Below the pieces are notes generated by a model. That model saw nothing but the letters and a program-made list of their open reading frames with translations, had not been told where the DNA came from and ran no database searches. The translations under genes were made by a program, and so were the position numbers. Shown here in pieces: positions 39,047 to 43,511 of a stretch of DNA of 64,000 nt; position 1 is the first letter of the stretch; the number at the start of each line of letters is the position of its first letter. The stretch lies in assembly GCA_049320885.1 (NCBI GenBank), contig JBMORA010000028.1, forward strand, positions 65,306 through 129,305. The letters run 5' to 3'. The DNA is from Thermodesulfobacteriota bacterium. GTDB lineage: Bacteria; Desulfobacterota; Desulfobacteria; Desulfobacterales; SURF-7.

Positions 39047-39111
39047 AGTTCTCGCCCATATGGATAAAACGTTATTGTCAAACAAACCATTTTTGCAACG
39101 AGGTTATCACG

Positions 39112-39375
39112 ATGAATTCCAAAGCTGAAAAACTGTGGCGGGTGAACGTCATATCGTTTATCATTCTGATGCTGCTGGTCGTAACAGGAATGGCCAACTG
39201 GCTGGTGTTTCCGGGCGGTTCCCACGGCGCGGGTTCCTCGATAAGGGGTTTTCTCTGCGCTGTTCACCGGTGGAGCGCCGTCGGTTTCATCCTGATGATC
39301 GGCGTCCATCTTTTTTTCCATCTGGATTATATCAACAAAAGTCTGGAAAAATACGGCCTCCTCCGGAAGAGATAA
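39112..39375 (+). CDS. Small two-TM protein, DUF4405 / cytochrome b-like
   Basis: TG...W, H.W.......HL..H pattern; RBS GAGG. Confidence 0.65.
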   Translation: MNSKAEKLWRVNVISFIILMLLVVTGMANWLVFPGGSHGAGSSIRGFLCAVHRWSAVGFILMIGVHLFFHLDYINKSLEKYGLLRKR

Positions 39376-39458: not shown

Positions 39459-39875
39459 GTGAAAACCTATCGAAAGGAACTGACCTTCCACATCCCCACG
39501 CGCCGGGCTTTCGTCAATATCACTCCCCAGGTGGAGGAATGCATCGCCCTGAGCGGCATCCGGGAAGGCCTGGTGCTGGTCAACGCCATGCACATCACCG
39601 CCTCGGTGTTCATCAATGACGACGAATCGGGTCTTCATCATGATTATGATGTCTGGCTGGAAAAGCTGGCACCCCATGAACCGGTTTCCCAATACCGCCA
39701 CAATGTGGGCGAGGACAATGCCGACGCCCACATGAAACGGCAGATCATGGGCCGCGAAGTAGTGGCGGCCATCACGGACGGACGCCTGGATTTCGGCACC
39801 TGGGAGCAAATCTTCTACGGCGAATTCGACGGCCGGAGGAAAAAACGGGTGCTGGTGAAGATCATCGGGGAATAA
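39459..39875 (+). CDS. yjbQ: YjbQ/UPF0047 secondary thiamine-phosphate synthase family
   Basis: [36 protein letters not shown]. Confidence 0.9.
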
Positions 39876-40029
39876 TGGCCGTCATGTCCTCTTTCCGGAA
39901 TTTTCCTTGACACTTTTACCGTGATTATGGCAATAGAGAAAGCTTGCTTTTGTGCGGCGGTTTCCCGGGTGCTGGAAACCGGATTACATACTAACTGTTT
40001 TGGTGAATATACAGGGATATTCCGGAAAA

Positions 40030-40458
40030 ATGCTTACCGACAAGAAAAAAGGTTTTTGGTATATCGCCCCGCTCGCCCTCGTTGCGCTGTTAGCCATGGC
40101 CCTGCCGATTTTGTCCGCCGATGAGGAAACCGACCCGTTTCCCGACCGGCAACGCCCGCCGGTGAATTTCCTGGAGGAATACCACGACGCGCATATGGAG
40201 AGCCAGGAATGTCTGGCCTGCCATCATAAATACGAAGACGGCGAGAATGTGCTGGATGAAAGCGACCTGGAAGAGGACAATCCGGACATCCGCTGCGCGT
40301 CCTGTCATAACGCGTCTTCCGATAACGATCCTACGGATCCCATGGAAGCGTATCACCGCCAGTGCATGGGTTGCCATGATGAGCTGAGCGCCAAGGGTGA
40401 GGAAACCGGTCCCAGCCTTTGCGGAGAATGCCATATCCGACAGAAAAATAAGGAATAA
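40030..40458 (+). CDS. Periplasmic acidic tetraheme cytochrome c3 (class III, TmcA-like)
   Basis: Signal peptide; four CxxCH (CLACHH, CASCH, CMGCH, CGECH); H..H distal ligands; very acidic. Confidence 0.9.
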   Translation: MLTDKKKGFWYIAPLALVALLAMALPILSADEETDPFPDRQRPPVNFLEEYHDAHMESQECLACHHKYEDGENVLDESDLEEDNPDIRCASCHNASSDNDPTDPMEAYHRQCMGCHDELSAKGEETGPSLCGECHIRQKNKE

Positions 40459-40478
40459 GCCGTTTCACGGAGGTAGAT

Positions 40479-41153
40479 GTGGTTAAAGGAAAAAGAAAGC
40501 CGTTGGAAGAAATCAGAGCCCTCCTGGCTCCCTACAACAAAGTGCTGCTCACCGGATGCGGTGGCTGCGTATCGGTCTGCCTGGCGGGCGGACAGAAGGA
40601 AGTCAACCTGCTGATCTCCGATTTGAAGATGCTGTTCAAACAGGAGAATACCCCGAAGGAACTGAAGGGGTATACGGTGGAAAGGCAATGCAATCAACAA
40701 TTCCTGGCCGAACTGGACGATATGGTGGGCGACCACGATTGTCTGGTGTCCATGGCCTGCGGCGCCGGCGTTCAATATCTTGCCGAGCGTTTTCCGGGCA
40801 AACCGGTTTTTCCGGCCATCAACACCCTGGCCATCGGCGTCGACCGCGAAATTGGCGTGTATGAGGAAAAATGCAGGGCCTGCGGTGAGTGCGTCCTGGC
40901 TTATACCGGCGGCATCTGTCCGGTCACCCGTTGCGCCAAGGGGCTGTTCAACGGTCCCTGCGGCGGAACCAACAAAGGGATGTGCGAAATCAGCAATCAG
41001 ATCCCCTGCGCCTGGTATGATATCTATAACCGGCTGAAAGAACAGAACCGACTGGCCGATATCCTGAAAATTCAGATGCCCATGGAATGGCGCAACCAGA
41101 CCCAGCGGACGATTGTTCAGGAAGCGTATGAGAGACGGTATGCCGGGAAGTAG
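40479..41153 (+). CDS. metV: Methylene-THF reductase small Zn/Fe-S subunit (MetV, MTHFR_C domain)
   Basis: GCGGCVSVC.AGG, RQC, ACGAGVQ, CRACGEC, GGICPVTRCAKGLFNGPCGG...CE...CAW; GTG start after GGAGG. Confidence 0.88.
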   Translation: MVKGKRKPLEEIRALLAPYNKVLLTGCGGCVSVCLAGGQKEVNLLISDLKMLFKQENTPKELKGYTVERQCNQQFLAELDDMVGDHDCLVSMACGAGVQYLAERFPGKPVFPAINTLAIGVDREIGVYEEKCRACGECVLAYTGGICPVTRCAKGLFNGPCGGTNKGMCEISNQIPCAWYDIYNRLKEQNRLADILKIQMPMEWRNQTQRTIVQEAYERRYAGK

Positions 41154-41268
41154 CAGTCGGACATCATTTCGGCCCGTCACCCCATGAATTGAATTTCAAC
41201 CGGTGCGCCGGCCGGCGGTGGACATCGACCGCCGCCGTGAGGGCGAAACCAAAAAAGTTGTTGCACAA

Positions 41269-41976
41269 ATGGACATATCAAACATACTCACCGCCGACTA
41301 TATTTACAATCTTGCACGGGGCCCGCTGGTCTGGATTTCCCTCCTGATCTGCATCATCGGTTCCGTGGCGAGAACGCTGCAACTCCTTTCCTATACCCGC
41401 ACCAAGAAAATCGACGAGAAAGCGGATCTCAGCTCCATCGGCAAGAAGCCGCCGGCCAAGAAATTCAGCCTCAAGGATCTGCCGGATCTGGTCGCCTCCC
41501 TGAAGCACACCATTCTGGCCGTCAGCCCGGTCACCATACTGGTCAGTTTATGCTTCCACATCTGCCTGATCATCGTGCCCGTTTTTTTACTGGCGCATAA
41601 CATCCTCATCGAGGATGCCGTCGGATTCAGCCTGTTTTCCTTTTCGGAAGCCTTCAGCGATGGCCTGACCTTCGTGTTTCTGCTCTGCGGCCTCTTCTTT
41701 TTGTCCCGCAGGATTTTTCTGCCGCGGGTGCGGGCCATCACGACGCTTTACGACTATGTGGTGCTGCTGATCACCGTCGCCCCCTTCCTGACCGGATTTC
41801 TGGCCTACTACCAGGTGTTCGATTACAAGACCATGATCATCCTGCACATGCTGGCGGGCGAATTGATGCTGGTGTCCATACCGTTCACCAAGATTTTTCA
41901 TATGTTTTTCTTCTTTGTCGGCCGGTTCCTGCTCGTGAACCAGCACACCATCGGAAAGGGAAGCAGAACCTGGTGA
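41269..41976 (+). CDS. NarI/TmcC-like diheme cytochrome b membrane subunit
   Basis: Five TM; RGPL.W; His pairs FHIC...LAHN and LHML...PFTKIFHM. Confidence 0.85.
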   Translation: MDISNILTADYIYNLARGPLVWISLLICIIGSVARTLQLLSYTRTKKIDEKADLSSIGKKPPAKKFSLKDLPDLVASLKHTILAVSPVTILVSLCFHICLIIVPVFLLAHNILIEDAVGFSLFSFSEAFSDGLTFVFLLCGLFFLSRRIFLPRVRAITTLYDYVVLLITVAPFLTGFLAYYQVFDYKTMIILHMLAGELMLVSIPFTKIFHMFFFFVGRFLLVNQHTIGKGSRTW

Positions 41977-42028
41977 TCCGGCATATCGCAAGGGATCGAT
42001 ACAACAATATGTTCTTCTGGAGATACCA

Positions 42029-42406
42029 ATGACCGAACAAAAAGCAGCCGTTGACGTTGGGGAAGTCAAACGAATGCTGGATAAACATAAGGCAAAGATG
42101 AAGCTGTCCCTCAGCCTATGCGCGCATTGCTCCTTGTGCGCAGAGAGTTGCTTCCTGTTCAACGCCCGCAACAACGACCCGAAATACATGCCTTCCTACA
42201 AGTTCATCAATTCCATCGGGAAGATCTATAAAAAAAAGGGGAAGGTGGACCAGGCCATGCTCGAGGAAATCGCCGTGAACGCATGGAAACGCTGTGTGCT
42301 CTGCACCCGCTGTTATTGCCCGTTCGGCATCGATATCCCCAGCATGATCGCCCTGGCCAGAAGCATCTGCCGTTCCCAGGGGGTCTATCCCCAGTACGAT
42401 GAATGA
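42029..42406 (+). CDS. 125-aa 2x[4Fe-4S] protein (N-terminal domain of TmcB/HmcF/DsrK family, no CCG domains)
   Basis: CAHCSLCAESC...P.Y.PSYK and CVLCTRCYCPFGIDI; RBS GGAG. Confidence 0.85.
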   Translation: MTEQKAAVDVGEVKRMLDKHKAKMKLSLSLCAHCSLCAESCFLFNARNNDPKYMPSYKFINSIGKIYKKKGKVDQAMLEEIAVNAWKRCVLCTRCYCPFGIDIPSMIALARSICRSQGVYPQYDE

Positions 42407-42500
42407 GCCGTGACGGGGGGTAACCAGGGACGGAAGCGTATCACCGAAGAGAATCGCCAAATCAAGGTTGGCTTTAACCAAACGAGAAGGATGTGTGGAA

Positions 42501-43448
42501 ATGAGTACGGAAAACACTCATGATTTCAAAGCAGGCAGCAATCTGGAAAAAATTCTGAAAGCCGGACATTTCGCCTTCACCGGAGAGCTGGGGCCTCCCC
42601 GGGGTTCCAACGTGGAGCATGTCATTGAAAAAGCCAAGCCCTTGAAGGGCATGGTCGACATGGTCAATATCACCGACAACCAGACCGCCATGGTGCGTAT
42701 GTCCAGCTGGGCCGCCGCCCTCATCGCCCTGCGCGAAGGCCTGGAGCCCAATTATCAGATGGTCTGCCGCGACCGAAACCGTCTGGCCATGCAGGCCGAC
42801 ATTCTCGGCGCTTATGCCCACGGCATCCGCAATATCCTCTGCCTGTCCGGAGACCACCAGCAGTTCGGCGATCACCCCAACGCCAAAGGCGTTTTCGACA
42901 TCGACTCCATCCAGCTGGTGGGCATGATCAAAAAAATGCGCGACGAAGGCAAATTCCTGAGCGGCGCCGAAATCGACCATCCGCCGAAACTGTTCATCGG
43001 CGCGGCCGCCAACCCCTTCGGCGACCCCTTTGAGTGGCGGGTCTACCGTCTGGCCAAAAAAGTTCAGGCCGGCGCGGATTTCATTCAGACCCAATGCGTG
43101 TTCAACATGAAAAAAATGCGCGAATTCATCAAGCAGGCCAATGACATGGGTCTGACCGAGAGGACCAGCATCCTGGCCGGCGTGACCCCCATGAAGAGTC
43201 TCGGTATGGCCAAATACATGGCCACCAAGGTGCCGGGCATGGATGTCCCGGAAGACGTCATCAAACGGATCCAGGGGGTGGACAAGAAAAAACAGGCGGA
43301 TGAAGGCATTACCATCGCCTGTGAACAAATCCAGGAATTCAAGGAGATGAAAGGCGTCGCCGGTGTCCACCTGATGGCCATCGAATGGGAGCACAAGGTT
43401 CCGGAGATCGCCGAGCGCGCCGGCATGCTGCCGCGGCCGAAAGTGTAA
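42501..43448 (+). CDS. metF: Methylenetetrahydrofolate reductase, flavoprotein subunit
   Basis: ELGPPRG, NITDNQTA.VRMSS, QMVCRDRNR.A.Q, LCLSGDH, KKVQAGADFIQTQ, GVHLM. Confidence 0.93.
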   Translation: MSTENTHDFKAGSNLEKILKAGHFAFTGELGPPRGSNVEHVIEKAKPLKGMVDMVNITDNQTAMVRMSSWAAALIALREGLEPNYQMVCRDRNRLAMQADILGAYAHGIRNILCLSGDHQQFGDHPNAKGVFDIDSIQLVGMIKKMRDEGKFLSGAEIDHPPKLFIGAAANPFGDPFEWRVYRLAKKVQAGADFIQTQCVFNMKKMREFIKQANDMGLTERTSILAGVTPMKSLGMAKYMATKVPGMDVPEDVIKRIQGVDKKKQADEGITIACEQIQEFKEMKGVAGVHLMAIEWEHKVPEIAERAGMLPRPKV

Positions 43449-43480
43449 CGCCGAGAATCGATCTTCCTGAAAATCCCCAT

Positions 43481-43511
43481 AAAAAACCCGGCCGACCGCC
43501 GGGTTTTTTTT
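43481..43511 (+). terminator. Intrinsic (bidirectional-type) terminator after metF
   Basis: AAAAAACCCGGC-CGACC-GCCGGGTTTTTTTT. Confidence 0.85.

Follow-up and report, generated by a model that had tools for sequence, protein, structure and literature searches.

How is the methylene-/methyl-tetrahydrofolate (THF) step, with a potential of -200 mV, coupled to the membrane? For acetogens, syntrophic acetate oxidizers and complete-oxidizing sulfate reducers this is an old open question (PMC9430772, PMC6895022), and according to PMC9430772 the step was proposed as a coupling site in 1977. A stretch of 64,000 nt from a Thermodesulfobacteriota bacterium, contig JBMORA010000028.1 (hereafter the window, whose numbering is used throughout), directly names a candidate for the integral membrane partner of methylene-THF reductase. 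In an operon at 40030-43511, the genes of the two subunits of this enzyme, metV and metF, are interleaved with genes for a cytochrome c3, a cytochrome b and a small Fe-S protein. We interpret the operon, with a probability of about 0.6, as a membrane-wired methylene-THF reductase, in which a membrane arm of the Tmc/Hmc type would have its CCG head replaced by MetVF and would link methyl-/methylene-THF to periplasmic cytochromes. The wiring of MetVF to a Tmc-like arm is supported because the linkage survives the shuffling of gene order, the ligands are conserved, the CCG domain is replaced, and the module is placed inside acs operons elsewhere.

Genes and ligands of the operon

All five open reading frames (ORFs) lie on the + strand in the order c3, metV, cytochrome b, Fe-S and metF, with intergenic gaps of 20, 115, 52 and 94 bp. 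The unit ends in a single intrinsic-terminator-like hairpin (43481..43509, +; 12-pair stem and T-tract), whose predicted RNA fold of -18.3 kcal/mol (z -4.5) was matched by none of 200 shuffles. A preliminary description of this DNA had reported five co-oriented genes closed by one terminator, with metV and metF set among Tmc-like c3, cytochrome b and Fe-S genes; the reading frames and the hairpin were found where it had placed them, and gene order and family scans agree with it. From this layout, we infer that the five genes are co-transcribed.

MetV, the Cys-rich Zn/Fe-S subunit (40479..41153; PF12225, E 3.6e-36), has 13 Cys residues, each present in at least 76 of 78 rows and arranged as in the three other MetV proteins of the genome, which points to a complete set of Zn/Fe-S ligands; a PDB sequence search with MetV gave no match. 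MetF, the catalytic flavoprotein (42501..43448, alternative TTG start 42468; PF02219, E 6.6e-40), has relatives among the methylene-THF reductases of solved structure. Its residues E29, D118 and Q198, which we take to be the equivalents of the E. coli catalytic residues, are at least 90% conserved in 60 rows. A PF02219 MetF co-encoded with a PF12225 MetV, as found here, marks the MetVF type of methylene-THF reductase, which is defined by activity without direct use of NADH (PMC9430772). In the other metVF loci that we saw, metV and metF are adjacent, whereas here membrane genes split them.

The first gene (40030..40458) encodes a tetrahaem class III cytochrome c3 (PF02085) that is closest to the TmcA model NF045722, at 89 bits against a cut-off of 114. 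Four CxxCH motifs are present, and all eight His and eight Cys residues recur in 69 of 69 aligned homologues. A hydrophobic segment at residues 12-30 forms an N-terminal signal or anchor, and the protein from residue 31 onwards is acidic, with an isoelectric point of 4.4. The acidic tetrahaem class III cytochrome c that characterizes Tmc is therefore represented, though below the model's cut-off, and it would serve as the periplasmic point of electron entry or exit. The third gene (41269..41976, alternative GTG start 41203) encodes a dihaem cytochrome b of the NarI/TmcC/HmcE family, the predicted membrane anchor. It is nearest to the TmcC and HmcE models (NF045723, NF045716) and below both cut-offs, reaching 179 bits against 240 for TmcC with HmcE nearly as close. 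Residues H97, H110, H193 and H211 are kept in 79-80 of 80 rows. An AlphaFold model of this protein (predicted local distance difference test score 84.7) returned only NarI entries as its top Foldseek rows, with probability 1.0 and E about 0.006, besides a weak EtfD row.

The fourth gene (42029..42406) encodes a stand-alone alpha-helical ferredoxin adaptor of 125 aa (PF13183/PF13534). Its match to the 457-position HmcF model is confined to positions 36-154, and that to the 430-position TmcB model to positions 27-137; the HmcF (462 aa) and TmcB (456 aa) of the same genome align with it only over their N-terminal domains. The three redox proteins all score below the curated cut-offs of TmcA, TmcC, HmcE, TmcB and HmcF. 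The CCG domain, which is tied to disulfide reduction in DsrK, HmcF and TmcB (PMC10861901), is absent from the adaptor, in contrast to the TmcB of about 450 aa that combines Fe-S and CCG domains. Thus, the earlier label of a TmcB-like 2x[4Fe-4S] subunit is apt in that the Fe-S domain is homologous to the TmcB N-terminus, but it does not fit a protein of 125 aa that has no CCG domain.

The adaptor carries two Cys motifs, CxxCxxCxxxC and CxxCxxCxCP, and its eight Cys residues occur in 81 of 81 rows. The loci compared here are the best 80 of 340 relatives confirmed in a scan of GTDB species genomes with this protein; the second motif has the shortened form in 79 of the 80, whereas long TmcB/HmcF proteins have CxxCxxCxxxCP in 15 of 15. 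Short relatives number 542 within 68-219 aa, a search range that excludes longer forms, and measure 124-158 aa among 120 listed relatives. In a set of 41 genomes, the short form is 62-96% identical and occurs in 18, including the source genome, while long forms reach at most 54%, which leaves a clear gap. The possibility of a pseudogene or broken gene was rejected, as the protein belongs to a conserved short family with invariant ligands. With the model of this protein, Foldseek found no match at E 0.001 or better, and a wide fold search gave weak FrdB/SdhB rows with Z of 5-6, below the trust level of the tool; a PDB sequence search with its alignment gave no match. A complex prediction of the adaptor with MetV and three [4Fe-4S] clusters, in which controls were not folded, scored 0.11 and 0.06 against a mark of 0.32 and weighs neither for nor against contact.

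Relationship to Tmc, Hmc and known methylene-THF reductases

In a concatenated tree of cytochrome b and Fe-S protein, which took 21 of 37 module rows, sampled five Tmc-like rows and had no DsrMK outgroup, the 21 module rows were split from 15 Tmc/Hmc rows by a branch with 100/100 support. The two proteins do not group with TmcCB/HmcEF, and the module forms in this tree a clade separate from Tmc and Hmc. Judged by gene content, it is not a member of either complex but belongs to the MetVF-type methylene-THF reductases. A second tree, built from 51 of 89 module MetVs and all 19 others, places the module MetVs on one side of a branch and the other MetVs on the opposite side, with support of 81/91 and presence in 83% of bootstrap trees.

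The Tmc complex (TmcABCD, Desulfovibrio vulgaris) shares with the module an acidic tetrahaem c3, a TmcC/HmcE-like dihaem cytochrome b, the Fe-S domain of the TmcB N-terminus and an inferred architecture that runs from periplasm to cytoplasm (PMC5109826, PMC10861901). The module differs in having no CCG domain, no TmcD (no such ORF is in the operon), a shortened second Cys motif, a clade of its own, interleaved MetV and MetF, and no tie to dsrA. With Hmc (HmcABCDEF), the likeness lies in the HmcE-like and HmcF-N-like subunits and in some module variants that carry HmcA/B/C-like genes; the window operon differs in having a tetrahaem c3 and no genes for the 16-haem cytochrome HmcA, HmcB or HmcC, and in lacking the CCG domain of HmcF. 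HdrDE and EMO are NarI-type anchors joined to cytoplasmic Fe-S enzymes. The module resembles these systems (DsrMK, HdrDE, EtfD/EMO) in connecting a cytoplasmic reaction to the membrane through a dihaem cytochrome b and an alpha-helical Fe-S domain. The known anchored enzymes, however, contain CCG domains and have disulfides or electron-transferring flavoprotein as their substrates; the module has no CCG domain, and its partners are MetVF and a cytochrome c.

Could the operon then encode a degenerate or split second Tmc, whose CCG half would come from another locus and which would serve sulfate respiration, being only coregulated with metVF? All three redox genes are Tmc/Hmc homologues, and a matching cluster in Desulfococcus multivorans has been annotated as Tmc2. 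Nevertheless, none of the 80 loci has a CCG gene next to its Fe-S gene (CCG matches occur in seven, all outside the chain), 11 of 15 carrier genomes in the phylum sample described below gave no dsrA match, the clade is separate and has its own conserved motif, and the interleaving of metV and metF survives several rearrangements. This explanation seems very improbable. A TmcB split into two genes was rejected as well, since CCG genes are not adjacent to the Fe-S gene in the 80 loci.

The D. multivorans cluster, tmcC2-tmcB2-tmcA2 (Dmul_21220/21210/21200; 236, 127 and 137 aa; PMC5109826), matches the module's cytochrome b, Fe-S and c3 in order and size, and on these two grounds Tmc2 is probably this module. 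The same paper describes Tmc2 as a Tmc paralogue and gives TmcB2 as 50 kDa in its text; in its wording, membrane fractions contained detectable TmcA2 and TmcC2 under 17 conditions. The words metF, metV and methylene do not occur in the main text of PMC5109826, and the relevant part of PMC2702500 notes two TmcBCA clusters and draws no link to MetVF. The suspicion voiced in the preliminary description, that such clusters had already surfaced in Desulfobacteraceae proteome studies, seems right for Tmc2, but MetVF was not linked to it there. The match suggests that some annotations of a second Tmc refer to this module. Its parts are already known, and its three-gene core was probably annotated earlier under another name. 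Searches of open-licence papers in PMC and bioRxiv turned up no description that joins MetVF to a Tmc-like membrane arm, and an earlier mention may exist in subscription papers or in supplements. Hdr-linked MetF or Tmc is discussed separately in the pertinent parts of PMC10553843, PMC6295475, PMC13416013, PMC11887813, PMC4046663, PMC5736913, PMC7325909 and PMC6085437, and the one text supplement of PMC11887813 that was searched gave no matches.

Among known methylene-THF reductases, the Hdr type (HdrABC-MvhD-MetVF; Moorella thermoacetica, Sporomusa ovata) has the same MetVF core and an alpha-helical Fe-S relay in HdrC, a distant homologue of the adaptor. The module differs from it in having no bifurcating HdrA, no HdrB and no MvhD, and in co-encoding an integral cytochrome b. 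No hdrABC or mvhD lies in the operon, the genome's Hdr-type metVF locus being separate on contig C48, and no rnfC2 lies beside metVF, as all five operon genes and both flanks have other assignments. The four classes of the enzyme listed in the part of PMC9430772 that treats them include none with an integral cytochrome. Membrane links have been observed biochemically: S. ovata shows membrane-associated, H2-dependent and NAD-independent methylene-THF reduction, for which the same source identifies no integral membrane partner (PMC9430772), and the activity of T. phaeum is membrane-associated, NAD-independent and linked to quinone analogues (PMC6895022).

Recurrence of the module across genomes

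Gene content was counted in the 61 loci whose gene chain is flanked on each side by 1.2 kb of DNA or more. MetV was found in 61, cytochrome b in 60, cytochrome c in 59, the cognate MetF in 46 and all five genes in 45; in the one locus left over for cytochrome b, it shares a frame with MetV and has no separate ORF. The order among the 80 loci was c3-V-b-FeS-F in 30, F-b-FeS-c3-V in 17, b-FeS-c3-V in 11, c3-V-b-FeS in seven and F-b-FeS-V-16-haem in five, the rest being rarer or cut-off forms, and the cytochrome b gene always stood immediately 5' of the Fe-S gene. The five-gene grouping is far beyond chance, because it recurs in several gene orders across families. The synteny elsewhere that a joint function would imply, and that had been put forward as a check at the outset, is thus present. 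Record titles of the loci include Desulfobacterales, Syntrophaceae, Myxococcota and Thermodesulfovibrionia. Cultured carriers include Desulfobacula toluolica Tol2 (CCK82375.1), Desulfoluna spongiiphila, D. limicola and D. butyratoxydans, and cultured Desulfocicer vacuolatum has the module with no adjacent metF, so that it is testable in cultured strains. We regard it as a conserved module and most likely a membrane-coupled form of the MetVF-type methylene-THF reductase.

In some other genomes the c3 gene is exchanged for HmcA-, HmcB- and HmcC-like genes. This Hmc-type form, with HmcB/HmcC-like genes and mostly a 16-haem cytochrome, was seen in loci L142, L144, L098, L099, L110, L114, L117 and L118, and in L142 and L144 it lies inside the acs operon.

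MetV, not MetF, is the constant partner of the membrane genes, because it is present in all 61 loci and the cognate MetF in 46. MetV may act as an adaptor that selects the redox partner. Where it is in the chain, the cognate MetF is 65-95% identical across families, and four of five metF-less genomes searched have a MetF of 73-81% identity elsewhere, where it accompanies a different MetV and, in several genomes, lies next to hdrA. A MetF encoded at another locus can probably serve the module. These counts also bear on a different unit, cytochrome c - cytochrome b - Fe-S - MetV, which would be a wire serving some other catalytic partner (a MetF paralogue, a MetF-MetV fusion or an Hdr-type complex) and not necessarily the methylene-THF reduction of the Wood-Ljungdahl pathway. 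Such a unit would explain why MetV is more constant than MetF, why several loci have a distant MetF paralogue or a MetF-MetV fusion next to the module, and why carriers have many MetF paralogues (the source genome gave eight MetF matches and four MetV). It fits less well with the identity of the cognate MetF across families, with its close relatives in metF-less genomes and with the placement of modules after acsE, and we consider it decidedly unlikely. Fusions of PF02219 and PF12225 (510-630 aa) were seen directly 3' of the module in two families (L154:4976-6541, L154:2-1888, L155:6429-7967).

In a phylum sample of 220 genomes, the short Fe-S protein was found in 15 carriers from six families; of 16 hits, G093 was left out, its frame of 481 aa being of the long TmcB type. 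Co-occurrence is given as raw counts with no significance test, since the 15 carriers fall into only six families. AcsB was found in 14 of the 15 carriers and in 129 of 205 non-carriers, and it lies within about 20 kb of the module in seven carriers. Only four of the 15 have dsrA. The module tracks the Wood-Ljungdahl pathway rather than sulfate reduction, because AcsB is present in 14 of 15 carriers and dsrA in four. Twelve further carriers reached through the loci all have AcsB. In three genomes of one family, acsE is followed by cytochrome b, Fe-S, metV and metF in the acs operon, and in two of these HmcA/B/C-like genes come next.

The linkage to acs operons also bears on an anabolic role, in which membrane electrons would make methyl-THF for methionine or corrinoid methylation and conserve no energy. 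In its favour, AcsB gave no match in one carrier (G151, 96% complete), and the Tmc subunits of D. multivorans are of low abundance and constitutively detected (PMC5109826). However, stand-alone MetF paralogues are already in the genome, acs operons hold the module in several cases, and no methionine synthase was found among the recurrent neighbours that have a relative in the source genome. An anabolic role therefore appears extremely improbable.

Proposed electron path and genomic surroundings

Starting from the genes, ligands, linkage, distribution and separate lineage described above, we propose that the products form a complex whose electron path, direction and energy coupling would be as follows. 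By a domain swap, the Tmc/Hmc membrane arm, consisting of cytochrome c, dihaem cytochrome b and a 2x[4Fe-4S] domain, would have exchanged its CCG head for MetVF. Electrons would travel between methyl-THF/methylene-THF, the MetF flavin, the MetV Fe-S centre, the Fe-S adaptor, the two b haems and c3, and beyond c3 to a periplasmic hydrogenase, formate dehydrogenase or Qrc. Such a wire would be reversible. Given potentials of -200 mV for methylene-/methyl-THF, -414 mV for H2 and -432 mV for formate (PMC9430772, PMC6895022), the reductive direction would run downhill, H2 or formate being oxidized outside and methylene-THF reduced inside, in a redox loop moving two charges per two electrons. In the oxidative direction (acetyl-CoA or methyl-group oxidation), electrons from methyl-THF would be pulled to the periplasm by the membrane potential, which would sidestep an uphill transfer to NAD+. 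The outward electrons could be taken up by hydrogenase or formate dehydrogenase in syntrophs, and by c3 and Qrc towards menaquinone in sulfate reducers (for the role of Qrc, see PMC5109826). The source genome has dsrAB, acetyl-CoA synthase/carbon monoxide dehydrogenase (ACS/CODH), Fhs, a NiFeSe hydrogenase exported by twin-arginine translocation, a periplasmic-type formate dehydrogenase and Qrc-like genes. A group-1-type hydrogenase small subunit or a formate dehydrogenase of the periplasmic type was found in 12 of the 15 carriers, a count that includes one hydrogenase match under the cut-off and had no control set.

The same complex could instead use menaquinone at cytochrome b as its physiological partner, in the manner of NarI, with the cytochrome c as an accessory and methyl-THF oxidation running downhill to menaquinone. 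The NarI fold of cytochrome b, the quinone-analogue-linked activity in membranes of T. phaeum and S. ovata (PMC6895022, PMC9430772), the three of 15 carriers in which these searches found neither periplasmic hydrogenase nor formate dehydrogenase, and two of 61 loci that have no cytochrome c gene are all in keeping with this. Against it, 59 of 61 loci have retained a c3 or 16-haem cytochrome, and Lys86 of the NarI Q-site falls on Phe/Ser, a tentative placement made by ungapped extension of a weak NarI alignment. We consider menaquinone unlikely as the main partner, and the two routes do not exclude each other, as the HmcC/QrcD-like subunit of the Hmc-type variants could reach quinone. With a cytochrome c gene retained in 59 of 61 loci, the evidence favours a route through periplasmic cytochromes over one that leads directly to menaquinone. 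The preliminary description had left the choice between menaquinone and the c3 pool open: its connection of MetVF to a Tmc-like arm is upheld by linkage, ligands and acs placement, and of its two outlets c3 is favoured over direct transfer to menaquinone.

We suggest more tentatively, as a possibility at somewhat less than even odds, a fifth class of methylene-THF reductase. It would be an integral, cytochrome-coupled respiratory complex running an energy-conserving redox loop from periplasmic H2 or formate to methylene-THF, and operating in reverse for methyl-THF oxidation in complete-oxidizing sulfate reducers and in Wood-Ljungdahl bacteria that do not reduce sulfate. In that case, MetV paralogues would serve as interchangeable adaptors through which one MetF could be connected to the membrane wire, to an Hdr complex or to an NADH/formate module.

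Several points weigh against a membrane-wired methylene-THF reductase. Similarity to this Fe-S protein was the basis for choosing the 80 loci, many of which are related to one another. The shortened second Cys motif may alter the cluster content of the adaptor, and the branch of module MetVs is not starred in its tree. Cognate metF is absent from the chain in 15 of 61 loci, and one of the five metF-less genomes searched has no MetF above 62% identity. In the source genome, the acs cluster is on a different contig from the operon, with no metF beside it, and three further metVF pairs exist, one of them with HdrCBA-MvhD. The module was found, at the search threshold used, in only 14 of 143 AcsB-bearing genomes of the phylum sample, and it is not required for the Wood-Ljungdahl pathway. 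The 40 close relatives show no enrichment, since AcsB was found in 12 of 17 carriers and 18 of 23 non-carriers, although the five AcsB-lacking carriers are 66-91% complete; the correlation with CODH/ACS expected at first appears in the raw counts of the phylum sample but not among close relatives. D. multivorans is reported to lack both periplasmic hydrogenase and formate dehydrogenase (PMC5109826), the searches found neither in the three carriers mentioned above, and TmcB2 was not detected in D. multivorans by proteomics (PMC5109826), which counts if TmcB2 is this adaptor.

Besides the module, the source genome keeps a complete Tmc (contig C44, where a 420-aa gene is labelled tmcD by position and size) and a complete Hmc (contig C1). 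Its MetF/MetV loci lie on contigs C16, C48, C63, C25 and C9 (L002-L008). The C16 metVF adjoins a 1401-aa HdrA-like gene, that of C48 adjoins hdrC-hdrB-hdrA-mvhD followed by glutamate-synthase-like genes (labelled by inspection), and that of C63 adjoins a NuoEF/Fdh-like cluster. A histidine kinase and hybrid regulator pair stands beside the module in 27-28 of the 80 loci (range L044-L093), and the same pair occurs 3' of the C16 metVF (C16:7699-10663), which suggests that it might regulate MetVF loci specifically. In nine of the 80 (L050, L057, L062, L073, L076, L077, L079, L109 and L112), a gene pair labelled formate-dehydrogenase-like by its likeness to proteins of the source genome converges on the metV end of the module.

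A consensus promoter scan called no + strand promoter upstream of the operon; a perfect TTGACA lies at 39907-39912, about 120 bp 5' of the c3 start, with no consensus -10. The gap between metV and cytochrome b holds a G+C-rich hairpin without a T-tract (about 41210-41240; z -2.3), possibly a processing or stabilizing element. The operon is preceded by a tesB-like gene and a UPF0047 (yjbQ) gene and followed by an FtsX/MacB-family permease gene. The UPF0047 gene (39459-39875) is also near the module in 10 of the 80 loci, some with another gene order, and between tesB and yjbQ a small ORF (39111-39375; about 87 aa) encodes a putative membrane protein that has two hydrophobic segments containing His.

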